Below are positions 31,795-61,907 of a DNA stretch of 64,000 nt, one piece after another. The translations under genes were made by a program, and so were the position numbers. Under the pieces are notes generated by a model. That model had not been told where the DNA came from, ran no database searches, and worked only from the letters and a program-made list of their open reading frames with translations. Numbering within the stretch: position 1 is the stretch's first letter; each line of letters opens with the position of its first letter. This DNA comes from a virus. Its lineage: Duplodnaviria > Heunggongvirae > Uroviricota > Caudoviricetes. The stretch is taken from IMG/VR virus record IMGVR_UViG_3300045988_024527, positions 1 through 64,000 of that record. One strand, given 5' to 3'.

Positions 31795-32057
31795 ATTTTT
31801 TATAAGGCTACTGCCATCCTTCCATACCAAGCCCTGCCGAACCGAACCATGCTTTGCCATACCGGACAATACCTGACTAGACATCACTTAAAAATCCTCT
31901 TAGAAGACTCTTAAGTGATGTAATCGAATTTTTATGTAGTTTCGATTAACTACCCATACCAAGCCTAACCTGACCGCACCAAACTTTACAACACCACACC
32001 ATACCTGACCATAACAAACCTCATTAAAAGACCCTGTTTAAAGACCTTTTAAAAAGG
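31795..32057 (-). repeat. modular intergenic repeat block A (CA-rich segments plus hairpins H1, H3, H2)
   Basis: Shares H1 (31882-31920), H3 (31922-31953) and H2 (32021-32057) with block B at 33221-33460, modules in different order. Confidence 0.6.
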
Positions 32058-32073
32058 AGCCTCCGAAGAGGCT
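32046..32073 (-). terminator. rho-independent terminator (- strand)
   Basis: Stem agcctc/gaggct with loop cgaa; on the - strand followed by ccttttt. Confidence 0.5.
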
Positions 32074-32084
32074 ACCTAGTCAAC

Positions 32085-32525
32085 TTAGAAAGGTTTTCTA
32101 CGTTGCTTGTTAATGTTAGCTTTCATAGCAGCTAAATGGTTTTGCTGTTCAATCAGTCGTGAACGTTCTTGATGACTAAGTGCCATAGTGTTCACATTCT
32201 CAATTGCTTGAGTGGCTTGTTTTAAAGCACGACCAATCTTACCAGACATTTTACGTTTTGCAATAGTTGCTTGATGTTTAGGTTCAACCACACGATAACC
32301 AACACCCATTGAAGCAACCAGATAAATCTTCTCTTCTTTAAGAAGTTTCTCAATAAACTTCTCAAGTCGGTTTAGACGTGTAAGTGCATAAGCCTTCATT
32401 TCATCTTCGTACTTAACAATGTCACCTTGATAAGTTGGCTTCACAATACCTAAGAAGGTGTCCATCTCAGAATGTGATACAGTGTCACCGTAACTAAACT
32501 TTGCTGCTAATGCTTTTGTATTCAT
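32085..32525 (-). CDS. hypothetical protein (146 aa), repeat-flanked cassette gene 2
   Basis: ORF track; basic C-terminus; no recognised motif. Confidence 0.5.
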   Translation of the reverse strand: MNTKALAAKFSYGDTVSHSEMDTFLGIVKPTYQGDIVKYEDEMKAYALTRLNRLEKFIEKLLKEEKIYLVASMGVGYRVVEPKHQATIAKRKMSGKIGRALKQATQAIENVNTMALSHQERSRLIEQQNHLAAMKANINKQRRKPF

Positions 32526-32527
32526 AA

Positions 32528-33133
<606 letters not shown>

Positions 33134-33220
33134 TTAGTTGATTGTTAAGTTGTTTGTAAAGAACCCTCAACAGAAGACTCTTTAGAAACTTGGTAGATTT
33201 TTAATGTGGCTACTACCATC

Positions 33221-35918: not shown

Positions 35919-36452
35919 TCAACTTAGTTTTGCAAACTCTCCGTGGAGTTTAATAGCAGCTTCACAGTAAGCTTTATAGGCTTCTTCAGGTGTGTCATGG
36001 TGACCTAAAAACATCTTCTTACCTTTATAACTTATCTGTGCGACCCACTTACCGGACTTCTTCTTAAGACTTACACCCTTGTACCCAGATTTATTGGTGA
36101 CTGGTTTACCTTTATTCCAAGCACTTTGAAAATCATCTGCTTCCCTTAAGTTTACAATCCTGTTGTCAAGCGAGTCTCCGTTGATATGGTCAATGATACC
36201 TTTTGGCATCTTGCCATACACGTAAAGCCATGCGAGTCTGTGTGCTTTATGTGCTTTCTTGTCAAAATAGATACTAATCTGTTTATGACCACTTGAATCA
36301 GTCTGGATATTACCTGCCACCTTTCCTGCATAATTACTGTTAAAAACACTAACAGCTCTTGATTTACCTTCTCTACGAAGCCAAGTAAAGACCCCTGTTT
36401 CGGGGTCATAGTGCAGCAGCTCCTTTAAACGTTTTTGTAAAATTAAATCCAT
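35919..36452 (-). CDS. HNH homing endonuclease with AP2-like DNA-binding domain
   Basis: LHYDPETGVFTW ... HRLAWLYVYGKMPKGIIDHINGDSLDNRIVNLR ... SGYKGVSLKKKSGKWVAQISYKGKKMFLGHHDTPEEA; paralogue of 46036-46539 and 59579-60070. Confidence 0.75.
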   Translation of the reverse strand: MDLILQKRLKELLHYDPETGVFTWLRREGKSRAVSVFNSNYAGKVAGNIQTDSSGHKQISIYFDKKAHKAHRLAWLYVYGKMPKGIIDHINGDSLDNRIVNLREADDFQSAWNKGKPVTNKSGYKGVSLKKKSGKWVAQISYKGKKMFLGHHDTPEEAYKAYCEAAIKLHGEFAKLS

Positions 36453-45023: not shown

Positions 45024-46070
45024 ATGGAGAAGTACACATTAACAAAACTTCCCGATTCAGTTACACATGTCTTTATTGACTCTGACAGTATTGCCTATAA
45101 AGGTGCTTGTGTAGTTGAGAAAGCAAAATATAAATACGTCAATAAACTCACAGCAGAAGAATCTGAGCCATTTGATAATGCGAAAGATGCTGCAAGATGG
45201 TTAGCAGACCAGAGAATCCTTGTGGAAGAGCTTGGCCTGACATTTGATGAAGATGAATGGGAAAGACAGACTTGGAAAGAAGCGAAGAGTGAAAAAGAAG
45301 CTATCATGGCTACTCAACAGGTGCTTCAGGAATGGCTTAAGGTTGTTGGTAAAGAGAGAACTTGGGTAGGTTACTTAACAGAGAAAGGTGTGCATAAACA
45401 CAAAGACATTAAAGGTCTTGAGCACCAATATCAAGGTAACCGCAAAGATGCTGTCACACCAACACACTTAGTTGCTTGTCGTGAGTATCTTCTGTCAAGA
45501 CCAGAGTTCAAATTAATTCTTGATGGATTTGAAGCTGACTCTATCGTTATTGCTAAAGCTGAAAAGATGGGAAAAAAGGCTGCCTTAATGAGTATTGATA
45601 AAGACCTTCGCCAAGCTGAAGGGACTTACTGTATTGATATGACCTATGAAAAGTCGCCTTTGATTTTCATTGCTGATAACAATGTTGGTGAAATTTGGGA
45701 TTGTCCAATAAAATCGACACCAAAAGCTAAGAAGACAGTTGGGGTAGGTTTTAAATTTCTTTGTTACCAAGCTGTGGCTGGTGATAATGCGGATAATTAT
45801 TTTGGTTTAAAGGGTGTTGGTAAGGTTACTATAATGAAAGCCCTTGAAGGTAAAACCACCTACAAAGAGTGTCTTGATGCAATTTATGAACTTTATGCTA
45901 AGAAAGAGTCATACACTTATGTCTCGTGGGATGGTCAAACAATTACCAGAACACCTTTAGAGTTAATGCAGCAACACTTTTTCTTAGCTTATCAGGAAAG
46001 AAACAAGAAAGATGATTTCACTTTTGATAAGTATGGATGGACACCAAATGTTAACCCAACAAACTCTTAA
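45024..46070 (+). CDS. 5'-3' exonuclease / flap endonuclease (RNase H-like)
   Basis: Acidic motifs DSDSIAYKG, DGFEADSIV, DKDLRQ and H3TH-like AVAGDNADNYFGLKGVGKVT. Confidence 0.7.
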   Translation: MEKYTLTKLPDSVTHVFIDSDSIAYKGACVVEKAKYKYVNKLTAEESEPFDNAKDAARWLADQRILVEELGLTFDEDEWERQTWKEAKSEKEAIMATQQVLQEWLKVVGKERTWVGYLTEKGVHKHKDIKGLEHQYQGNRKDAVTPTHLVACREYLLSRPEFKLILDGFEADSIVIAKAEKMGKKAALMSIDKDLRQAEGTYCIDMTYEKSPLIFIADNNVGEIWDCPIKSTPKAKKTVGVGFKFLCYQAVAGDNADNYFGLKGVGKVTIMKALEGKTTYKECLDAIYELYAKKESYTYVSWDGQTITRTPLELMQQHFFLAYQERNKKDDFTFDKYGWTPNVNPTNS

Positions 46071-46539
46071 AGAATACCTACACTATGACCCCGAAACAGG
46101 GGTCTTTACTTGGATTAAGAAGTCTGCTAGACACACAAAAATTGGCTCTGTTGCAGGTACAAACTTAAGAGGGTACACCAGAATTTATTTGTTTGGTAAG
46201 GGTTATTATGCACATACTCTAGCTGTTCTGTATATGGATGGATACCTACCTGAGTGTGTTGACCATAAAAATCATGTAACACTAGACAATCGATGGGTAA
46301 ACCTTAGGGCATGTACATTATCAGAGAACCAATGCAATAGGTTGCTCAATAAGAACAATAAATCAGGTGTTAAAGGTGTGTACTACAAAAAACAGTATGG
46401 TAAGTGGTCTACACAGATAACTTTTAAGAAGAAAGTTTACTTCTTCGGAAACTATGACACTATTGATGAAGCAGCAGAGGTTGTAAATAGGGAACGCCAA
46501 CGTTTACACAAAGAGTTTGCTAATAAAGGTGATGAATGA
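46036..46539 (+). CDS. HNH homing endonuclease with AP2-like domain
   Basis: LKEYLHYDPETGVFTW ... HTLAVLYMDGYLPECVDHKNHVTLDNRWVNLR ... SGVKGVYYKKQYGKWSTQITFKKKVYFFG; start uncertain (track 46012). Confidence 0.7.
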   Translation, partial: DGHQMLTQQTLKEYLHYDPETGVFTWIKKSARHTKIGSVAGTNLRGYTRIYLFGKGYYAHTLAVLYMDGYLPECVDHKNHVTLDNRWVNLRACTLSENQCNRLLNKNNKSGVKGVYYKKQYGKWSTQITFKKKVYFFGNYDTIDEAAEVVNRERQRLHKEFANKGDE

Positions 46540-47036
46540 GAAAAATAAAAGGTTTTGGCAATTGCCCTGAATATGGACATTGGGTTTCACTATGTGGTGA
46601 AGTTGACCCAGCAAAGCACTTTGGTTTTGTCTACCTAGTGTACTGCAAAAAGACTGGACAGTACTACTTGGGTAAAAAACAGCTTAATAGTGTGACCAAA
46701 AGAAAAGTTGCTGGTAAGACTCGGAAGAAGGTAGTCACTAAGGAAAGTGATTGGATGACTTACGAGACTTCTTCTGAGTATATCAAAAAAGATATTGAAA
46801 GCTTTGGAAAAGAATCTTTTGACTTTTATATTATTCAAACCTACTACACAAAAGGTGGCCTAGTTTATGGTGAAGCAAACCTTCAACATAAGTTCGATGT
46901 AATGACAAAAAGGATTGACTCGAAGCTCAGACTCTTCTACAATGCCAATATTGCAGCAATTAAGTTTATTACTAAAGAAACTTATGAAGATGCTGAAAAA
47001 AGAATCCATAAGGTAATGAAAGCAAATTGTGCTTGA
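46536..47036 (+). CDS. GIY-YIG-like endonuclease
   Basis: GFVYLVYCKKTGQYYLGKKQ resembles the GIY-(10-11)-YIG motif; directly downstream of HNH gene. Confidence 0.5.
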   Translation: MRKIKGFGNCPEYGHWVSLCGEVDPAKHFGFVYLVYCKKTGQYYLGKKQLNSVTKRKVAGKTRKKVVTKESDWMTYETSSEYIKKDIESFGKESFDFYIIQTYYTKGGLVYGEANLQHKFDVMTKRIDSKLRLFYNANIAAIKFITKETYEDAEKRIHKVMKANCA

Positions 47037-47042
47037 TAACTA

Positions 47043-47306
47043 TTGAGAGAGAATAAAATGTTTAACAAAAGTAAAGCTGTGAGCCATGTAGCAAAAGTTG
47101 ACAGCAAGATTGAAGAACTTGAGCGCATTCTTGCAAATGCTAAAGAGTCAATAATTAAAGAAGTTGAAGCTGTTGAATCTCAAATGCAGCACCTAATGCT
47201 TAAACGCCAAGAGCTACGTGAGCATCTAGAATATATTGAAACACGAGAGCTAAAAGTTAACAGATATTTTAAGGAGTCCGAATGTTTAACTCAAGAGAAT
47301 CAGTAA
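47043..47306 (+). CDS. hypothetical coiled-coil protein (87 aa)
   Basis: ORF track. Confidence 0.35.
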   Translation: MRENKMFNKSKAVSHVAKVDSKIEELERILANAKESIIKEVEAVESQMQHLMLKRQELREHLEYIETRELKVNRYFKESECLTQENQ

Positions 47307-48037
47307 AAAACTGGAACCTTCGTTGTGGAAACACTCAAAAACAACCTTACAGTAATGAGTATTGGGAATCTTTAAAATCTCAATCTCTGTGTATGCTTGA
47401 AGAAGCAAAAGAGCTTGTAAAAGCAATTGAAGAGAAAGACCCCATTGAGACACTGGATGCTCAGGCAGATTTGCAATATGTTCTTGACGGTTTGATTTAC
47501 CTGTCACAGCATGACCATAACGGTGCTATGAAAGCTGTTTGCCATAATAATGACCTGAAGTACACAGATAACTATGAAGAAGCTTTAAAACGTCTTGCAG
47601 ACATTGAAAAGCGTACTGGTCAAGAGTGTATTATCAGAATGTCAGTAGTTGATGGTAAAGAGTGGTATGCAATTGTTCGTGCAGCAGATGGGAAGATTAT
47701 GAAGCAATCGAATCTCCCTAAAGTACAGCTTGGTGAATACATTGTAGAACTTGAAAGCCAAGAACTTTTTGTGGTAGTATCTGAGACATGCGTTATCTGC
47801 AAAGGTCTTGTAGGTAGCTTAAAGGATTTGGGTGTAGATGGTTTTGTAGAAGTTAATCCAATTACCTCTAAAGCAGATAAAGACTTCTGTAAAGAGAATG
47901 GACTATGGATTGCAGATATTGTCTACTATGATGGTGAGCAGTTCCATGTAACCTCATACCCGAAACTGAATTATGATGCTAATAACCTGAAGTGCTGGTT
48001 AAAAGGGGTTGGTTATAATGGATTCACAGAACATTAA
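47282..48037 (+). CDS. MazG-like NTP pyrophosphohydrolase domain fused to unknown C-terminal domain
   Basis: N-terminal LEEAKELVKAIEEKDPIETLDAQADLQYVLDGLIY fits the all-alpha EExxE...D pattern; about 150 aa C-terminal region unrecognised. Confidence 0.4.
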   Translation: MFNSRESVKNWNLRCGNTQKQPYSNEYWESLKSQSLCMLEEAKELVKAIEEKDPIETLDAQADLQYVLDGLIYLSQHDHNGAMKAVCHNNDLKYTDNYEEALKRLADIEKRTGQECIIRMSVVDGKEWYAIVRAADGKIMKQSNLPKVQLGEYIVELESQELFVVVSETCVICKGLVGSLKDLGVDGFVEVNPITSKADKDFCKENGLWIADIVYYDGEQFHVTSYPKLNYDANNLKCWLKGVGYNGFTEH

Positions 48038-52825: not shown

Positions 52826-54022
52826 ATGAACAAAGTACAGATTATTAAAAAGAATGGCTCACTTGAAGAACCTGATATCAAAAAAGTTTTAGCAGCAGTA
52901 ACTAAGTCAGCTAACAGAGTTGGATATAAAGAACTCCCACCAGATGTTACCCAAGCTCTTGAGTCAGCATTTATGAGGATTCTGGTAAAGTCCACTAAGC
53001 AGAATAATTTACTCATCTCAGTCAATGATATCCACAGCATTGTTGAGGGTGCTTTGGCAGAAGTCAATCACGAGATTTATGAGTCTTACTCAACATATAG
53101 AAATTACCGGAAAGAGGTTGCTCAAAATTGGGATGAGCTTTACCAAAAGACTAGAGACACGCTCTTCTTAGGTGACCGTGAAAACGCTAACTTTGACAGC
53201 AGTTTAATTTCTACAAAAGGTTCAATTATTCGTGGTTATCTGACTAAAGAAATCTTTAAACAGTACCATTTAACACCAGAGGAACTTGAAGCCATTGAAA
53301 AAGGGTTTATCTATATCCATGATTTAAGAGACCTAATTTTTGGTGGTATCAACTGTTGCCTGTTTGACATTGGTAAAGTACTGAAAGGTGGCTTTGAAAT
53401 GTCTGGCATCGAATACTGTGAACCGAAGTCTGTGCTGTCAGCCTTACAGGTTATTGGTGATGTAGTTCTTTCAGCAACTGCACAGCAATTTGGTGGCTTT
53501 ACTTTAGCAGAGATTGATAAGGTACTTGTACCGTATGCTAAGAAGTCTCTACGCTATCATGCTGAGAAAGCAGCATCTTACGGTATTCCTAAAGAACATT
53601 ACCACAATTATGTCATGGAGCAGCTACAGATTGAACTGACTCAAGGTTTCCAGTCACTTGAAATGAAACTAAACACTGTACCTTGTAGTCGTGGGGATTT
53701 TGCATTTACAACTTTGACATTTGGGTTACTTGACTCAGATATGTCTAATGAAGATAATCGACTGCAATACATGATTGCAAGTACTCTCCTAGATGTTCGT
53801 ATGAATGGACAAGGTAAGAGCAAGAAGCCTGTTGTATTCCCTAAACTGGTTTATATTTATGACCAGAAGAGACACGATGAGAATATCTGTCAAGGACACC
53901 TGTACAGTAAAGCCATTGAGTGTTGCTCTAAAGCGATGTATCCAGATTTCTTAAGTGTATCTGGTCATGGTGCTGTAGCAGAGGCTTTTGAGCGTTCTGG
54001 TAAGGTTATTTCACCGATGGGT
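52826..54022 (+). CDS. nrdD: anaerobic ribonucleotide reductase, exon 1
   Basis: 399 codons ending ...ERSGKVISPMG; reading frame hits stop 3 nt into the proposed intron. Confidence 0.8.
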
Positions 54023-54764
54023 TAACAGGCTCTATAGCTCATCTAAAACGTGCCTAAACAGGGAAACTCTACAGATGTAGACAATCCTGTGCTAAATGAT
54101 GTACGATGTAAGAAACTATACAACATAGGAGTCTTACATGCCAAACTATCACGTCACTGAAGATGGAAAAGTCTTTAGGGAAAATGGTGTAGAACTTACG
54201 CAGTGGAAATCCAACACTGGGTATATGAAAGTGAGGTTTTACGGTAAGAAGAATCGTGACATGTATGTCCACAGGTTAGTTGCTGAGAAATATGTACCTA
54301 ACCCGAATAATCTTCCAATTGTAAAACATAAGGACGATAACAAACTAAATAACCACGCATCTAACTTAGAATGGGGTACTCATTCTGAGAATGCTAAAGA
54401 GGGTTATGAGAACGGATGTTACAAGTTCCACAAGCGTTCATATGCCGTGAAAGCCACACACAAAGTGACAAAGGAAGTTATTGTTGCTAAGTCAATACGA
54501 GAGTTATCCAATATACTTGGACACAATCGCAAGACCATCTCTTCAATATTGAAGGGTGTAAAAGAGCATAATAACTTCGAATATGAGTTTGAATACATCT
54601 AAATGCCGAACGACTAACCGTGATGAATGTAGCGGTGTAGGGTCAAGCGACTCGAAATGGTACGCTACTTAGAAATAAGTAGAAGATATAGTCTGGACTT
54701 ACTGGCGACAGTAAGCAGCTTGAATAAAGCGGGGTAAGCTTAGCGAACTTACCTGAACAACAAG
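54023..54764 (+). other. group I self-splicing intron interrupting nrdD
   Basis: Exon 1 ends in U (54022) and intron ends in G (54764); exon tail gatgggu can pair intron gcucauc (54037-54043) with U-G at the splice site; joining gives ...SPMG|CRAFLSPYLNDNGEEFYVGRANIG...; intron carries an HNH ORF. Confidence 0.65.
54138..54602 (+). CDS. intron-encoded HNH homing endonuclease
   Basis: VHRLVAEKYVPNPNNLPIVKHKDDNKLNNHASNLEWGTHSENAK is an HNH_3-type motif; located inside the nrdD intron. Confidence 0.8.
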   Translation: MPNYHVTEDGKVFRENGVELTQWKSNTGYMKVRFYGKKNRDMYVHRLVAEKYVPNPNNLPIVKHKDDNKLNNHASNLEWGTHSENAKEGYENGCYKFHKRSYAVKATHKVTKEVIVAKSIRELSNILGHNRKTISSILKGVKEHNNFEYEFEYI

Positions 54765-55712
54765 TGTAGAGCGTTTTTATCACCATATCTTAACGATAAT
54801 GGGGAAGAGTTCTATGTAGGTCGTGCTAACATTGGTGCTGTGTCTTTGAACTTACCAATGATTTACCAGTATTCTAAAGAGAATGGTTTAGATTTCTGGA
54901 AAGAGCTTGATAAGTACCTAGAGATGATTCGTAGTTTCCACAAGAAACGCTATGAAATGATTGCCAATATGCCAGCAAGTTCTAACCCTCTTGCATTTAC
55001 ACAAGGTGGTCTGTACAAAGGAACTAAGAAGCCTACTGACAAGGTTGGTTGGGATATTGTGAAGTCCTTCACAGCTTCTTTTGGGGTTACTGCGCTTGAT
55101 GAGCTATCTGTTCTTGCTGAAGGTAAACGACTTCATGAAGTTGGAAGCTATAGTTTTGCATATGATGTTCTGGCATACATCAATATGAAAACTGAAGAGT
55201 TTAAGAACGAAGATGGCTTCTTGTATGCGGTATATGGCACTCCAGCAGAATCACTTTGTGGAACTCAGTTAAAACAGTTCAGAGATATGTTTGGCGTTAT
55301 TAAAGGTGTCTCTGACAAGGAATACTTTACAAACAGTTTCCATATGAATGTTGCAGCAGACATCTCACCATTTGAGAAGCAGGACTTAGAAGAGCCATTC
55401 TTCCATATCTGTAGAGGTGGTAGAATCCAGTATGTAAGGGTAGCTAACCCAGAAAACTTACCAGCACTTAAAAGTTGTATTACAAGAGGGATGTTGAAGG
55501 GTTTTTATCAGGGACTTAACTTTGACTTAGCAATCTGTGAACATTGTGGTAACAGACCAAAAGCTGATGTTGAAGAATGTGAGGTTTGTCATTCACATGA
55601 TATCTCTGTGATTAACAGGGTGTGCGGATACTTATCATTCACAAAAATTAAAGGCCAGTCTCGAATGAATGACGCTAAGATGGCAGAAATTAAGGATAGG
55701 ATTTCTATGTAA
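54765..55712 (+). CDS. nrdD: anaerobic ribonucleotide reductase, exon 2
   Basis: In-frame continuation with C-terminal cysteine cluster CEHCGNRPKADVEECEVCHSHD and glycyl-radical motif RVCGYLSF. Confidence 0.8.
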   Translation, partial: CRAFLSPYLNDNGEEFYVGRANIGAVSLNLPMIYQYSKENGLDFWKELDKYLEMIRSFHKKRYEMIANMPASSNPLAFTQGGLYKGTKKPTDKVGWDIVKSFTASFGVTALDELSVLAEGKRLHEVGSYSFAYDVLAYINMKTEEFKNEDGFLYAVYGTPAESLCGTQLKQFRDMFGVIKGVSDKEYFTNSFHMNVAADISPFEKQDLEEPFFHICRGGRIQYVRVANPENLPALKSCITRGMLKGFYQGLNFDLAICEHCGNRPKADVEECEVCHSHDISVINRVCGYLSFTKIKGQSRMNDAKMAEIKDRISM

Positions 55713-57528: not shown

Positions 57529-57840
57529 ATGGAAAAGATTTATAACACTCGTAAAATTCAGATTTCTATTCTGTGTCAGTTTATGGCTGATAAGCACAAT
57601 TCACATTATTGTGGCACAGGTTTCCTTACTCTTGGCGGCGGTTACATTAGCTTCAAAGAGGCTGTAAAGATGTACAATGAGCACCCTGAAGATGATAAAG
57701 AGCTGAAGCAGCTTAAACTTTCTTATGATAAGAAACGTAAGAAAATAATCTGCTTGAACAACCTTATCAAGCCAACTGAAAAGGTCTATGATGCAATTGG
57801 TGAAGAAGGTTTCTTCAAAGTATTGAAATTAGTTCAGTAA
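57529..57840 (+). CDS. hypothetical protein (103 aa)
   Basis: ORF track. Confidence 0.35.
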   Translation: MEKIYNTRKIQISILCQFMADKHNSHYCGTGFLTLGGGYISFKEAVKMYNEHPEDDKELKQLKLSYDKKRKKIICLNNLIKPTEKVYDAIGEEGFFKVLKLVQ

Positions 57841-57853
57841 GAGTCTATGATTA

Positions 57854-57877
57854 GGGAACTGTAAAGGTTCCCTTTTT
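57854..57877 (+). terminator. rho-independent terminator
   Basis: gggaac-tgtaaag-gttccc followed by ttttt. Confidence 0.6.
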
Positions 57878-57891
57878 ATTTTGGAGATAAT

Positions 57892-58407
57892 ATGTACCTG
57901 TCAAACCTGAAACGTTCGGCTGCAATGTCAGTGTTAAGGCTCAGCTTTGAGGAACGTCAAGAGTTCATTGACTCCCACCAATATGACCCTTCCAACTCCA
58001 ATCACATGATTCTCTGGAATCGTGAGAGTACTCGTGAAAGAGCACTATTCCGCTATTACCCACATTACACCATAGATAACCTGTATGAATGTTTTGTTGT
58101 GAAGAACACCATTACAGTACTCAATAAGCTTTGCAGATACACAGGTAACCAGTCCTTCACATTAGGCCACCACAAGCCTGTTACAAAAGGTGGTGAACAT
58201 CACTGTGCAAACTGGTTTATCCAGACTAAAGCTGATAATCAGAAGCAAGGAGATAGACTTTTAAGCACCTCTAAGATGACCTATGAAGAGCAAGAGAAAT
58301 ATATCAAAAACAATATGCCAGATGTGCTTGACAACAGCTATACAGATTTGGCAATATCTCTCCTGTTGAAGTTCGAGACAGTTTATAGGGCAACTTACAA
58401 TGGCTAA
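57892..58407 (+). CDS. putative HNH-type nuclease
   Basis: LGHHKPVTKGGEHHCANWFIQTKADNQKQG resembles an HNH core (H-H...GG...N...N). Confidence 0.35.
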   Translation: MYLSNLKRSAAMSVLRLSFEERQEFIDSHQYDPSNSNHMILWNRESTRERALFRYYPHYTIDNLYECFVVKNTITVLNKLCRYTGNQSFTLGHHKPVTKGGEHHCANWFIQTKADNQKQGDRLLSTSKMTYEEQEKYIKNNMPDVLDNSYTDLAISLLLKFETVYRATYNG

Positions 58408-58678
58408 AGCAGATTGGGAAATAAAAGACCTAATAAGTGATGCTGGAAATGGTTGTGAGATGTATATGATTCGTGGCCATATACCAGACCCATTAGCTCT
58501 TGAGATGATTGACCGTCACACAAACGGATTCTACAAAGAACTAGGTGAACCAAATGTTGAACGCACTTGGACAAAACCAGTACCAGATAGCACAGGCAAC
58601 TGTTCAGTAATCTATCACATTGTGAATCCACAAAAATGCAAAACAGCTATGGCTGTGACATTCGTAACTTTTGATTGA
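58400..58678 (+). CDS. hypothetical protein (92 aa)
   Basis: ORF track. Confidence 0.35.
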   Translation: MAKADWEIKDLISDAGNGCEMYMIRGHIPDPLALEMIDRHTNGFYKELGEPNVERTWTKPVPDSTGNCSVIYHIVNPQKCKTAMAVTFVTFD

Positions 58679-59570
58679 GAGTAAAACTATGAAAACATCT
58701 ATCCGTGTTATAATTCATTCACCGACAAAAGGGTCTCATGAAGAAGAGTTTAACCTCATCCAGTTCCCTTCTGGTGAGATTGGTGGACACTTTTCACAAG
58801 AGCTTGTTGACTTTACTGCTCACGCAGCATCATCCATCAACAATGTGATTATGATTGTAAAAGGTTATGATAAAGACACATTGTTTGCTGTGGCACTTGC
58901 TAAAGAAGCAATTGATGATTTAGTTCCTCATGAATATGCCTTAAAGACTGTCATTTTTTACTACTTACCAAATGCACGATATGACCGTCACATGTTTAAA
59001 GGTGATGCAGCAGCTTTGAAGGTTTTTGCTAAACAGGTTAATGCAATGGGGTTTGGTGCAGTCTGTGCAGTTGACCCTCACAGTTATGTACCAGACAACC
59101 TATTTAACTGCTTCCAAAGCATTCCTCAAAAGGAAGTCGCAGTTCACTATGCGAATGACCCTCTGGTTGATTACTTAGTAGCCCCAGATGCAGGTGCTTC
59201 TAAGAAGATTGCAGAGACTGCTAAAGAGGTGGATAAACCATACATCACAATGTCTAAAGTACGTAACCTTAAGACTGGTGAAATTACTGGTATGCGAATC
59301 CTTGATGATGTTGATTTGACCGATAAAACTGTTATGATTCTCGACGATATCTGTGATGGTGGTCGAACATTCATAGAAGCAGCTAAACATCTTCGTGAAG
59401 CAGGTGCAAAACGTGTGGAACTCTATGTAACACATGGTATCTTCTCTAAAGGTGTTGAAAACCTTCTTGACAATGGTATTGACCACATTTACACTACAAA
59501 CTCTTTAGGGGAAGCTAAAGACCGTGGCTTAACACATTATGGTCAAGTTACTGTAGCAAACCTTGATTAG
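58671..59570 (+). CDS. ribose-phosphate pyrophosphokinase (PRPP synthetase)-like protein; candidate ADPR-pyrophosphate synthetase
   Basis: PRTase-fold signature DKTVMILDDICDGGRTFIEAAKHL and overall Prs-like layout (about 300 aa). Confidence 0.65.
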   Translation: MIESKTMKTSIRVIIHSPTKGSHEEEFNLIQFPSGEIGGHFSQELVDFTAHAASSINNVIMIVKGYDKDTLFAVALAKEAIDDLVPHEYALKTVIFYYLPNARYDRHMFKGDAAALKVFAKQVNAMGFGAVCAVDPHSYVPDNLFNCFQSIPQKEVAVHYANDPLVDYLVAPDAGASKKIAETAKEVDKPYITMSKVRNLKTGEITGMRILDDVDLTDKTVMILDDICDGGRTFIEAAKHLREAGAKRVELYVTHGIFSKGVENLLDNGIDHIYTTNSLGEAKDRGLTHYGQVTVANLD

Positions 59571-59578
59571 GTATTAAA

Positions 59579-60070
59579 ATGGATAAGGGTTACTTCGAAA
59601 AATACCTAATATACGAACCGGAGACAGGTTTACTAATTTGGAAAGTAACCCTTTGCAATACCGCTATTGCTGGTAATGTTGCTGGCACAAGGTCTAAGAA
59701 GGGTTATATCCAAGTCCAGATAAATAAGAAGAGGTACTATGCACATAATATTGCATGGATTATGTCTGGAGGTGAGATACCAAGTGGATATGAGATAGAC
59801 CACATAGACCTTGATAAATCTAATAATAAGTTGGAGAATTTAAGACTTAGCACAAAATCACAAAATCAGAGGAATAGGGGTATATACAAGAATAATAAAA
59901 CTGGTGTGAAGGGTGTAAGTTTTTGTAAACAAACAGGTCTTTACAAAGCAAGAGTCATGCTTTACCATAAAGAATACTTTTGTGGAAGATTTAAAACGGT
60001 AGAAGAAGCAAAAGAAGCTGTAATTAAAAAGCGAATAGAACTTCATGGTGAGTTTGCAAGACATAACTAA
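59579..60070 (+). CDS. HNH homing endonuclease with AP2-like domain
   Basis: YLIYEPETGLLIW ... HNIAWIMSGGEIPSGYEIDHIDLDKSNNKLENLR ... TGVKGVSFCKQTGLYKARVMLYHKEYFCGRF; third copy of this family. Confidence 0.75.
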   Translation: MDKGYFEKYLIYEPETGLLIWKVTLCNTAIAGNVAGTRSKKGYIQVQINKKRYYAHNIAWIMSGGEIPSGYEIDHIDLDKSNNKLENLRLSTKSQNQRNRGIYKNNKTGVKGVSFCKQTGLYKARVMLYHKEYFCGRFKTVEEAKEAVIKKRIELHGEFARHN

Positions 60071-60088
60071 GAGAGAGAGAGATAAAAT

Positions 60089-61870
60089 ATGAGTAAGTCA
60101 CTTTACGCAGTACCAGCAGGTCTTAATGCAGATGCTTACAAGGCATCACATATATATCAGTATCCAGATGCTACGCAATATCTTATGTTGAACCTGACAC
60201 CACGTAGTGACAAATGGTTTAACAGCCCCTTAGCAATTGATGGTGTAGTTGCTTTTGGTATTCAACGTTTTGTTAAAGATTACTTGATAGACCACTGGAA
60301 CGCCACTTTCTTTGAACGTGACAAAAAAGAAGCCATTGACGAAATCTTAGAAGTCATGAATGGTGTTCTGGGTAAAGATGCTATCGGTCGAGAGCATTGG
60401 GAAGCACTTCACGACTTAGGTTATCTACCAGTTGAAGTATACGCTGTAGAAGAAGGCACAGTCGTCCCTATGCGTGTCCCAATGATTGTCTTCCAGAACA
60501 CTGTTTCAGGTTTCCATTGGGTAGCAGGTTATCTGGAAGATGCTTTCTCTGCTGAGATTTGGAAGGCTTGCACTATTGCAACTATTGCATTGCATTACAA
60601 ACGTATCTGTAAGAAGTGGGCTGACCTTACTTGTGACAACGACTTGCATTTACCTTATCAGTGCCATGACTTTGCTATGCGTGGTATGTCCGGCTTTACT
60701 GATGACGCATTTAACGCTGTAGGCCACTTAACCAGCTTTAAAGGGACTGATAGCTTCCCTGCTGTATATACAGCTAAACGAATCTATGGACAGTCCTACC
60801 CAATCTCTGATATTGGTAGCTCTGTACCAGCCACTGAGCACTCTGTAATGTGTGCAAACATTGCTTGGGAAGGTGGTAATGAGTTGATTGAAGAAGAAAG
60901 ACGCTTTAAAGGTGAGTTACAAACCTTCCGTCGTTTCTTAACAGAAACTTATCCAACTGGTATTGCAAGTGTTGTTTCAGATACTTATAACTTCTGGAGA
61001 ACTGTGTCAGAAATCTTACCAGCACTCCGTAAAGAAATTATGGAACGTGATGGCAAACTGGTAATTCGCCCTGACTCTGGAGACCCTGTACATATTGTCA
61101 CAGGTTATAAAGCAATCCACTTAGAGTGTGCTAAGAAGGCTTATTACGAGCACCTAAGCAAGCTAGAGGCAAGTGACACAATGTTGAATGCTATTCTGAA
61201 CATGAAGCTTGAAAACATCAACTATGGTATTGCTGGATGGCTACTGTCAGAAGGCTACGAAATGGTTGTTGACAGAGAAGACTTTGAAGTTGCTGATACA
61301 GTGCTGTTGAAAAATGCTTATATGGTTGGTTCTGCAAACGTTGTAACACGTCCTGTAGCGGAGATTGATGGAGCTATCAAGACACTGTATAACATCTTTG
61401 GGGGAACTATTAACTCTAAAGGGTTTAAGGTACTGGATGAGCATATCGGCCTTATCTATGGTGACTCTATCACGCTGGAACGTGCAAACGAAATCCTGAA
61501 GCGTCTGTATGAAATGGGTTTTGCAAGCTCTAACGTAGTGTTTGGCGTAGGCTCTTACACTTACCAGTACATGACTCGTGACACCTTTGCATTTGCTGTC
61601 AAAGCAACTCTTGCAAGCATTGGTGGTAAAGAGATTATGCTTGCAAAAGACCCTAAAACAGATAGTGGTGTTAAGAAATCTGCCTTTGGTGGTGTAGCAC
61701 CTATGTGGGATGGTGACAAGCTGAAAGCTATAGATGGCTATGGATTCCAGAGTTTTGCAGATGTACTTGACCACCCAGCTTGTGCCTTACGTTTAGTCTT
61801 TAGTGACTCTGAGCAGTTCGGTTACACAACTCTTGGGGATATTCGAAATAATATTGACAAGCAGCTTTAA
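60089..61870 (+). CDS. nicotinamide phosphoribosyltransferase (NAMPT)-like protein
   Basis: 593 aa; type II PRTase-like regions (HDFAMRGMSG, SVPATEHSVM, GLIYGDSIT); paired with Prs-like gene. Confidence 0.7.
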   Translation: MSKSLYAVPAGLNADAYKASHIYQYPDATQYLMLNLTPRSDKWFNSPLAIDGVVAFGIQRFVKDYLIDHWNATFFERDKKEAIDEILEVMNGVLGKDAIGREHWEALHDLGYLPVEVYAVEEGTVVPMRVPMIVFQNTVSGFHWVAGYLEDAFSAEIWKACTIATIALHYKRICKKWADLTCDNDLHLPYQCHDFAMRGMSGFTDDAFNAVGHLTSFKGTDSFPAVYTAKRIYGQSYPISDIGSSVPATEHSVMCANIAWEGGNELIEEERRFKGELQTFRRFLTETYPTGIASVVSDTYNFWRTVSEILPALRKEIMERDGKLVIRPDSGDPVHIVTGYKAIHLECAKKAYYEHLSKLEASDTMLNAILNMKLENINYGIAGWLLSEGYEMVVDREDFEVADTVLLKNAYMVGSANVVTRPVAEIDGAIKTLYNIFGGTINSKGFKVLDEHIGLIYGDSITLERANEILKRLYEMGFASSNVVFGVGSYTYQYMTRDTFAFAVKATLASIGGKEIMLAKDPKTDSGVKKSAFGGVAPMWDGDKLKAIDGYGFQSFADVLDHPACALRLVFSDSEQFGYTTLGDIRNNIDKQL

Positions 61871-61884
61871 AAGTATATGATAAG

Positions 61885-61907
61885 AGGCTCCTACAGGAGC
61901 CTTTTTA
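61885..61907 (+). terminator. rho-independent terminator
   Basis: aggctcc-taca-ggagcct followed by ttttt. Confidence 0.6.

Follow-up and report, generated by a model that had tools for sequence, protein, structure and literature searches.

Locus organization

We analyzed a 64,000-nucleotide stretch of viral DNA (Caudoviricetes; IMG/VR record IMGVR_UViG_3300045988_024527, positions 1 to 64,000), hereafter the window, and focused on a locus in which a Prs-like and a NAMPT-like gene flank a gene for a homing endonuclease. The locus very probably represents NAD+ reconstitution pathway 1 (NARP1), a known phage counter-defense, as carried by a Felixounavirus, with an endonuclease gene inserted into it. 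The window itself belongs to a Felixounavirus—i.e. a FelixO1-like myovirus—and a 3.9-kb region of it matches 260 phage records, mostly at 90–95% identity, nearly all of which are Felixounavirus and relatives. A BLAST map shows that the window is collinear with Bas63 (Escherichia phage JohannRWettstein, MZ501086.1, Felixounavirus), covering Bas63 from 83.7 kb to its end and then 1–57.9 kb.

The locus contains 3 closely packed open reading frames (ORFs) on the plus strand, at 58671–59570, 59579–60070, and 60089–61870. The first and the last encode the Prs-like and NAMPT-like proteins, which we refer to as Adps (ADP-ribose pyrophosphokinase) and Namat (nicotinamide ADP-ribose transferase). A gap of 8 nt separates adps from the endonuclease gene and one of 18 nt separates the latter from namat, such that the endonuclease gene stands alone within the 518 nt from the end of adps to the start of namat. 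In phage allfine and in Bas63, adps and namat are directly adjacent.

The Prs-like gene encodes an Adps

The adps gene (58689..59570, plus strand) encodes 293 aa. The initial annotation had proposed a Prs-like gene at 58671–59570, and both the ORF and the family assignment stand, but 58671 is only the TTG that opens the maximal ORF. The likely start is the ATG at 58689, because a GAGAG lies 7–8 nt upstream of it, the Bas63 and allfine annotations place the start there too, and initiation at the TTG would make the gene overlap its upstream neighbor. In profile searches, the protein matches TIGR01251 (E 2e-34) and phrog_619 (E 9e-97). Its score exceeds only the broad subfamily cut-off of TIGR01251 (118.8 vs 113) and falls far under every NCBIfam cut-off for a Prs equivalog.

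The window Adps is 78% identical to Bas63 gp79 and 100% identical to the phage allfine homologue. In a 4-way alignment, it shares 33% identity with the Adps of ICP1 compared with 23% for Escherichia coli Prs, and it keeps all 7 residues (R87, H121, D161, K185, D212, D213, and D216 in ICP1 numbering) to which the ICP1 Adps structure paper assigns catalytic or acceptor roles (PMC13586617). It also ends ~13 residues before the end of E. coli Prs and is without a further ~10-residue segment; the loss of the C-terminal alpha11–alpha12 region of canonical PRPS is a defining signature of Adps (PMC13586617). We identified the structurally characterized enzyme as ICP1 ORF228 (UniProt F1D1Q1), whose sequence reproduces every residue number in that paper. 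Within the PDB sequence set the best matches of the window protein are archaeal Prs, and the comparison with Adps was made using the ICP1 gene sequence. Judged from these identities and cut-offs, without a formal tree, the window protein lies nearer to the verified Adps enzymes than to the Prs of cells.

Felixounavirus genomes carry 2 deeply diverged classes of adps allele, the window type accounting for ~155 records and the Bas63 type for ~94, and the class is independent of the presence of the endonuclease. Between the alleles, synonymous divergence (dS) is saturated (2.2) and the ratio of nonsynonymous to synonymous divergence (dN/dS) is 0.10, so both alleles appear to be old and functional. 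For adps itself dN/dS is ~0.1, with purifying selection on both halves of the gene. The region that contacts the ADP-ribose (ADPR) adenine in ICP1 Adps is N-terminal, and there the window protein reads "KGSH" vs "KFFH" in the Bas63 allele.

The NAMPT-like gene encodes a Namat

The NAMPT-like gene at 60089–61870 was recovered as initially annotated. This gene, namat (60089..61870, plus strand), encodes 593 aa that are 97% identical to Bas63 gp80, which has the same length, both insertions described below included. Profile searches place it in the NAPRTase family (E 6e-35), NF006629 (E 7e-141), and phrog_448 (E 9e-202), and its best match among solved structures is the Namat of SpbetaL1 (9w5w/9w5x; sequence E 8e-129, fold E 1e-51, TM 0.94). 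The AlphaFold (AF2) model of the window Namat has a mean predicted local distance difference test (pLDDT) score of 93, and fold comparison ranks 9w5x ahead of Haemophilus ducreyi NadV and mammalian NAMPT.

Two sequence elements separate Namat from Nampt. The first is the selectivity-clamp helix (SCH), with the signature GS-X-phi1-X-phi2-X-phi3-TRD in which X is aromatic, present in Namat and absent from Nampt (PMC12774641). Under this motif definition, the window protein carries it as G488-S-Y-T-Y-Q-Y-M-T-R-D498 (61550..61582, plus strand), the motif is equivalent to SpbetaL1 F392/Y396, and its phi3 is Met vs the usual Asn or Val. The second is the selectivity-clamp loop (SCL), where either an Arg at position 3 stacks on the adenine, or a Lys or Tyr stands there and the stacking residue comes next (PMC12774641). 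The window SCL, T37-P-R-S-D-K-W43 (60197..60217, plus strand), is the same as that of Bas63, which is cited as Lys-type (PMC12774641); its Lys is in the third position and its Trp in the fourth, i.e. the stacking position. The catalytic His, the catalytic Arg, and the RPDSG core are also present, and H251, R327, D329, and other catalytic residues are invariant in an alignment of 38 homologous sequences, the R327-type Arg corresponding to SpbetaL1 R306 and human R311.

Alignments reveal 2 lineage-specific insertions in the window Namat. Insertion 1 (aa ~258–272; 60860..60904, plus strand) follows HSVMCANI and, across Ounavirinae-like homologues, is 15–35 aa long. Insertion 2 (aa ~341–427, ~87 residues; 61109..61369, plus strand) follows the RPDSGDP active-site strand, is restricted to Ounavirinae-type Namat, and is predicted to form an ordered alpha/beta subdomain (pLDDT ~90). 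A search of PDB and BFVD for structural relatives of insertion 2 recognized none, and we found no description of it in the NARP1 literature. The subdomain could be a functional module (a lid, or an element with a role in oligomerization or regulation) and not just decoration. Different inserts occupy the same loop in a few unrelated homologues (P0097 and P0100).

Namat homologues are also found on bacterial chromosomes. Specifically, Klebsiella, Cronobacter, Kosakonia, Phytobacter, and Kluyvera harbor 496-aa proteins (P0068, P0072, P0087, P0104, and similar ones) that are 46–48% identical over the aligned part and carry the Namat-type motif GSFTYQYNTRD. These may be bacterial NARP1-like genes.

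Pathway identity

NARP1 came to light when genes 79–80 of Bas63 were deleted and the mutant proved sensitive to SIR2-HerA (Osterman et al. 2024, bioRxiv 10.1101/2024.02.11.579819). In that work, NAD+ was restored by wild-type Bas63 only, ADPR-pyrophosphate (ADPR-PP) was seen in vivo only when the operon and the defense were present together, and the counter-defense required neither host pncC nor nadR. As the Bas63 protein was difficult to purify, SpbetaL1 homologues were used to establish the in vitro chemistry (Osterman et al. 2024). The collinearity of the window with Bas63 is decisive here, since it was in Bas63 that the pathway was discovered.

The proposed mechanism starts with a host defense (SIR2-HerA/Nezha, Thoeris, DSR1/2, SEFIR, or similar) that would cleave NAD+ into ADPR and nicotinamide. 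Adps would then move the beta,gamma-pyrophosphate of ATP to the terminal ribose of ADPR, giving ADPR-PP and AMP, and Namat would exchange the pyrophosphate of ADPR-PP for nicotinamide, giving back NAD+ in 2 steps that involve neither nicotinamide mononucleotide (NMN) nor an adenylyltransferase.

The initial annotation had reported no NMN adenylyltransferase (NMNAT) nearby, and none was found over a larger range. Among the 31 window ORFs without an assignment, the 21 Pfam families matched include no NMNAT or cytidylyltransferase, and a regular-expression search of the same ORFs found no HxGH motif. For the part of the genome beyond the window (~23 kb), the check rests on the genes of Bas63, 46 of which stood in for this part and gave no NMNAT at E <= 0.003. 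The result agrees with a published survey in which 97% of Adps-clade genes adjoin namat and no phage has both NARP1 and NARP2.

Taken together, synteny, orthology to Bas63 gp80 and gp79 (97% and 78% identity), the motifs, and the lack of a detectable NMNAT in the genes searched lead us to assign the locus to NARP1 with high confidence. Every feature of NARP1 that can be read from a sequence is present, and the window locus is a same-genus orthologue of the founding example of a pathway that is already known. The chemistry and the counter-defense of this particular allele are presumed from orthology and motif conservation.

The alternative is classical salvage, in which the Prs-like enzyme would make phosphoribosyl pyrophosphate (PRPP), the NAMPT-like enzyme would make NMN, and host NadR or NadD would complete NAD+. 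This reading matches the Pfam, NCBIfam, and GenBank annotations, and Namat does form NMN in vitro, at about half the level of human NAMPT, when ADPR-PP is absent (PMC12774641). However, an assay designed to detect Prs activity yielded nothing with the SpbetaL1 homologue of Adps (Osterman et al. 2024), the assays of SpbetaL1 Namat with ADPR-PP, PRPP, or both led their authors to define NARP1, the window Namat has the ADPR-PP clamp signature that NAMPT is without, and the Prs score of the window Adps clears only the broad cut-off mentioned above. The window proteins fall with Adps/Namat and not with Prs/NadV. We therefore consider classical salvage very unlikely, and the preference for NARP1 over it that had been voiced in the initial annotation is borne out by the syntenic orthologues of gp79 and gp80, the clamp signature, the conserved residues, and the NMNAT searches.

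The assignment to NARP1 has implications for how related genomes are read. In ~250 FelixO1-like records, the labels "ribose-phosphate pyrophosphokinase" and "nicotinamide phosphoribosyltransferase" denote Adps and Namat—i.e. a broad-spectrum counter-defense against NAD-depleting systems, which is relevant when phages are chosen for therapy or biocontrol.

A homing endonuclease between adps and namat

The gene between adps and namat (59579..60070, plus strand) encodes a free-standing HNH-AP2 homing endonuclease of 163 aa. It matches phrog_99 (E 4e-69) and HNH_3 (E 2e-19), the latter over its full length (1–46 of 46 profile positions) and with the motif YAH...DHID...NN...NL...QN. The AP2 match, which comes after the HNH domain, is weak (E 5e-4, under the Pfam cut-off). 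The gene had been described as splitting the NAD+ module, which is correct in that it sits in the spacer and separates the pair, but not in the sense of an interrupted gene, as both enzyme genes are uninterrupted.

The endonuclease gene is found in 61 phage records, in one copy each, compared with ~253 records with an Ounavirinae-type adps. Its carriers belong to Felixounavirus (FelixO1 included), Suspvirus, and Mooglevirus, and it occurs beside either adps allele; phage allfine, which has an identical Adps, is without it. The boundaries of the insertion are identical in 5 endonuclease-bearing genomes, and 11 others have an empty site. In these 11 endonuclease-free genomes, the spacer is 44–47 bp long and contains a conserved hairpin, GGGGCTTnnAAGCCCC, followed by ATTTTG (free energy, dG, ~-12 kcal/mol); examples are L009:4883-4928 and, in Bas63, L007:8628-8672. 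In the 5 endonuclease-bearing genomes the hairpin is replaced, within the interval that runs from the stop codon of adps to the GAGAG ribosome-binding site preceding namat. The hairpin might act as a weak terminator, or as an RNA-stability element by which the ratio of the 2 enzymes is set.

The 5' end of namat consists of foreign sequence linked to the insertion. In the window, the opening ~96 nt of the gene (60089..60184, plus strand) are Suspvirus/Mooglevirus-like, hereafter A-type: they are 92–93% identical to phiSUSP1, vs 70–73% in the rest of namat, and 73–77% identical to B-type Felixounaviruses, vs ~96% in the rest. The dS is 1.23 in codons 1–32 vs 0.15 elsewhere, and the differences between A- and B-type are densest at nt 54–60 of namat (window 60142–60148). 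All 5 endonuclease-bearing genomes are A-type at nt ~20–96, and the B-type is seen only in genomes that are without the endonuclease.

A sample of 11 genomes had suggested a perfect association between tract and endonuclease, which was rejected after a search of the whole collection and the addition of 5 more loci. Across the collection, 84 records have an A-type tract vs 61 with the endonuclease gene, and the association is one-directional. For example, BPS17L1, REP8, Seyj1-1, and EC6 (L019, L020, L022, and L023) are endonuclease-free and keep the hairpin spacer, yet are A-type from nt ~34 to 96, with the bases of the empty site at namat nt 5, 9, and 18. Such endonuclease-free A-type genomes look like products of one-sided repair (co-conversion) or secondary losses of the endonuclease.

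The 5' tract of namat is probably a co-conversion tract that carries an immune variant of the target site. On the simplest reading of these alignments, which cover 16 genomes, the endonuclease would recognize or cut B-type namat within nt ~34–96 and the A-type would be immune. As a selfish element, it would probably cut endonuclease-free relatives that co-infect the same host, at a site in the initial ~100 nt of namat; repair would then copy the endonuclease gene in along with a short flanking tract, replacing the hairpin and leaving the enzyme genes intact.

We also considered that the endonuclease is more than a passenger, cutting the NAD+ operon of a rival phage in mixed infection, and, separately, that the Namat insertion is functional; we regard these proposals as rather unlikely. 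If the first were true, the endonuclease would spread itself with a foreign 5' namat tract or disable the counter-defense of a rival, and a mobile element would drive both allele exchange and competition at an anti-defense locus.

An endonuclease inside the operon with a linked tract, the 2 adps alleles, and the ~87-residue insertion in Namat are apparently undescribed: we found no description in the literature of the endonuclease in the operon together with the 5' namat tract, nor of 2 diverged adps alleles. The tract, the alleles, and the Namat subdomain offer pointers on how anti-defense operons are exchanged and on Namat structure and function, and leave the basic picture of the pathway unchanged.

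Transcription unit and expression

The initial fragment of the putative transcription unit contains a promoter-like site (TTGAAA-17-TATGAT) directly followed by a terminator-like hairpin (57823..57873, plus strand; dG -15.5 kcal/mol, z -2.6). These pattern matches, obtained by consensus scan, are the probable upstream boundary of the unit. At the other end, a second, strong terminator-like hairpin, also a pattern match, begins 12 nt past the namat stop codon (61882..61905, plus strand; dG -14.8 kcal/mol, z -2.4) and is the probable end of the unit. Between these elements lie 5 same-strand ORFs with gaps of <=18 nt, and it is on this basis that adps, the endonuclease gene, and namat are likely to share one transcript. 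A consensus scan of the interval from adps to namat found no terminator-like site other than one weak intragenic match, and a GAGAG-type ribosome-binding site is still present before namat.

Two of the 5 ORFs are conserved small genes upstream of adps. The first (57892–58407, plus strand; 171 aa, phrog_3500) is the orthologue of bas63_0077, and the second (58400–58678, plus strand; 92 aa, phrog_4726), directly upstream of adps, is the orthologue of bas63_0078. Both precede adps in every Ounavirinae locus examined, and neither they nor the gene downstream of namat have a match in Pfam. The product of 57892–58407 has a weak HNH-like motif, "HHKPVTKGGEHHCANW" (phrog_2214, E 1e-4). The small genes (57892..58678) apparently belong to the adps transcription unit and are outside NARP1 as defined; bas63_0077 and bas63_0078 were not part of the Bas63 deletion that abolished the counter-defense (Osterman et al. 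2024).

These features bear on whether the pathway is impaired in this genome. The insertion could lower or uncouple the expression of namat, given that it removed a conserved hairpin and added 0.5 kb between adps and namat, or Adps, with its divergent N-terminal allele, could have lost or changed its activity, given that the 5' half of the gene has only 64–76% DNA identity to the Bas63 allele that was tested. Against such impairment, neither ORF is disrupted and both evolve under purifying selection (dN/dS ~0.05–0.1), the arrangement recurs in the 61 records noted above, including the type phage FelixO1, and the window-type Adps allele is itself found in ~155 records. Moreover, the 8- and 18-nt gaps and the GAGAG-type site suggest continued co-expression, and the scan for terminator-like sites points in the same direction. 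We consider impairment extremely unlikely.

A functional NARP1 is thus the reading we retain, and several points weigh against it. The Bas63 proteins have been characterized in vivo only, the in vitro chemistry coming from homologues of SpbetaL1 and ICP1 with 33–38% identity. Namat enzymes keep some PRPP-dependent NMN synthesis in vitro (PMC12774641), and by analogy the window Namat may have a minor classical, NMN-forming activity. Adps and its Bas63 counterpart represent different alleles in the N-terminal half, the divergence spanning 58.44–59.04 kb. ICP1 F18, which contacts the adenine from the neighboring protomer, could not be aligned in the window protein, where the N-terminal alignment is unreliable, and F92, another adenine contact, is offset by 1 position (DRHMF in the window vs DRVFE in ICP1). 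With the hairpin lost, the relative expression of the 2 enzymes may differ from that in Bas63. Lastly, the proposed target of the endonuclease is deduced from a sequence association in the same 16 genomes.

Other features of the window

Two paralogues of the HNH-AP2 endonuclease, 38–40% identical to the 59579–60070 product, are found elsewhere in the window, among the ORFs at 46012–46539 (plus strand), 46536–47033 (plus strand), and 35919–36452 (minus strand). The paralogue at 46012 is not in Bas63 and is directly followed by a SegE-like GIY-YIG ORF (PF19835, E 5e-27), which was detected by Pfam; a regular-expression search of the ORFs for GIY-YIG returned nothing. The other paralogue adjoins the DNA polymerase gene. 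A different HNH endonuclease ORF lies between 2 pieces of nrdD, the gene for anaerobic ribonucleotide reductase (52826–54025, 54138–54602, and 54840–55712). This interruption suggests an intron, because nrdD of Bas63 is annotated as a joined coding sequence with a homing endonuclease inside.

The window is without 2 small genes of Bas63: bas63_0072 (99 aa, with a weak DUF5499 match; ~56492) and bas63_0081 (~61917), which encodes 114 aa, has no Pfam match, and lies directly 3' of namat in Bas63. Conversely, 32000–33190 has no Bas63 counterpart in the BLAST map and contains 2 minus-strand ORFs (32088–32525 and 32531–33130) with no Pfam match. A 251-aa ORF at 47282–48034 has a MazG-like domain (PRA-PH, PF01503, E 1e-5). 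In ICP1, ORF223 (L008:618-1031), a 137-aa protein annotated as "nucleotidyltransferase", is located ~1.7 kb upstream of adps–namat.

Comparison with known systems

The closest known system is NARP1 of Bas63 (genes 79–80), which shares with the window its genus, genomic position, and neighbors. It differs in having a 45-bp hairpin spacer with no endonuclease, the other N-terminal allele of Adps, and the extra gene bas63_0081. NARP1 of SpbetaL1 (9w5w/9w5x; PMC12774641) shares with the window the Namat fold, the catalytic residues, and the SCH signature, but its Namat is ~490 aa long, is ~38% identical, and is without both Ounavirinae insertions. It also stacks the adenine in the clamp loop with an Arg, vs the Lys-Trp pair in the window. 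ICP1 Adps (PMC13586617) has a PRPS-like fold, adjoins namat, and agrees with the window in the 7 residues and in the missing C-terminal module of Prs; aside from the low identity given above, the 2 proteins differ in the PP loop, which is DGAAS in ICP1 and DGGRT in the window.

A variant of the pathway, NARP1-AP, consists of Adps, the Macro-domain protein Adpp, and Namat (Osterman et al. 2026, bioRxiv 10.64898/2026.01.28.702374), and resembles the window locus in having a third gene that adjoins adps and namat or lies between them. In NARP1-AP, this gene encodes a Macro-domain phosphatase, whereas in the window it encodes an HNH endonuclease. The Pfam scan of window ORFs found no Macro domain, and because there is no such gene in the operon or the window, the locus is not NARP1-AP. 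Bas63 has a 261-aa Macro-domain protein, bas63_0095 (Bas63 63278–64063, L007:18278-19060; PF01661, E 1e-7), which is annotated as "putative phosphatase" and lies ~8 kb downstream of its NARP1, outside the range of the window. This protein may be a counterpart, encoded at a separate locus, of Adpp, the ADPR-1''-phosphate phosphatase of NARP1-AP. The gene bas63_0081 had been a candidate for Adpp and was rejected, as the Macro-domain protein is bas63_0095. The aRES paper makes no mention of Bas63.

NARP2, represented by Nampt/NadV and Nmnat of KVP40, has homologous folds and the same annotation labels. However, it requires an Nmnat, and because none was found here the locus is not NARP2. NadV and NAMPT are without the GS-aromatic-x-aromatic-x-aromatic-x-TRD signature of the window Namat, and E. 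coli Prs, with its low identity to the window Adps, has the C-terminal tail.

As for the endonuclease, variable endonuclease content has already been noted for Felixounavirus in the literature, and the gene has its nearest parallels in the free-standing homing endonucleases of T-even phages (seg and mob; HNH_3 enzymes, e.g. I-HmuI). Like these, it is intergenic, has a patchy distribution, and is flanked by a probable co-conversion tract, and its target is apparently displaced from the insertion point, which in the window is deduced from sequence. Its domain layout, with HNH preceding AP2, differs from the seg/mob type of T-even phages.

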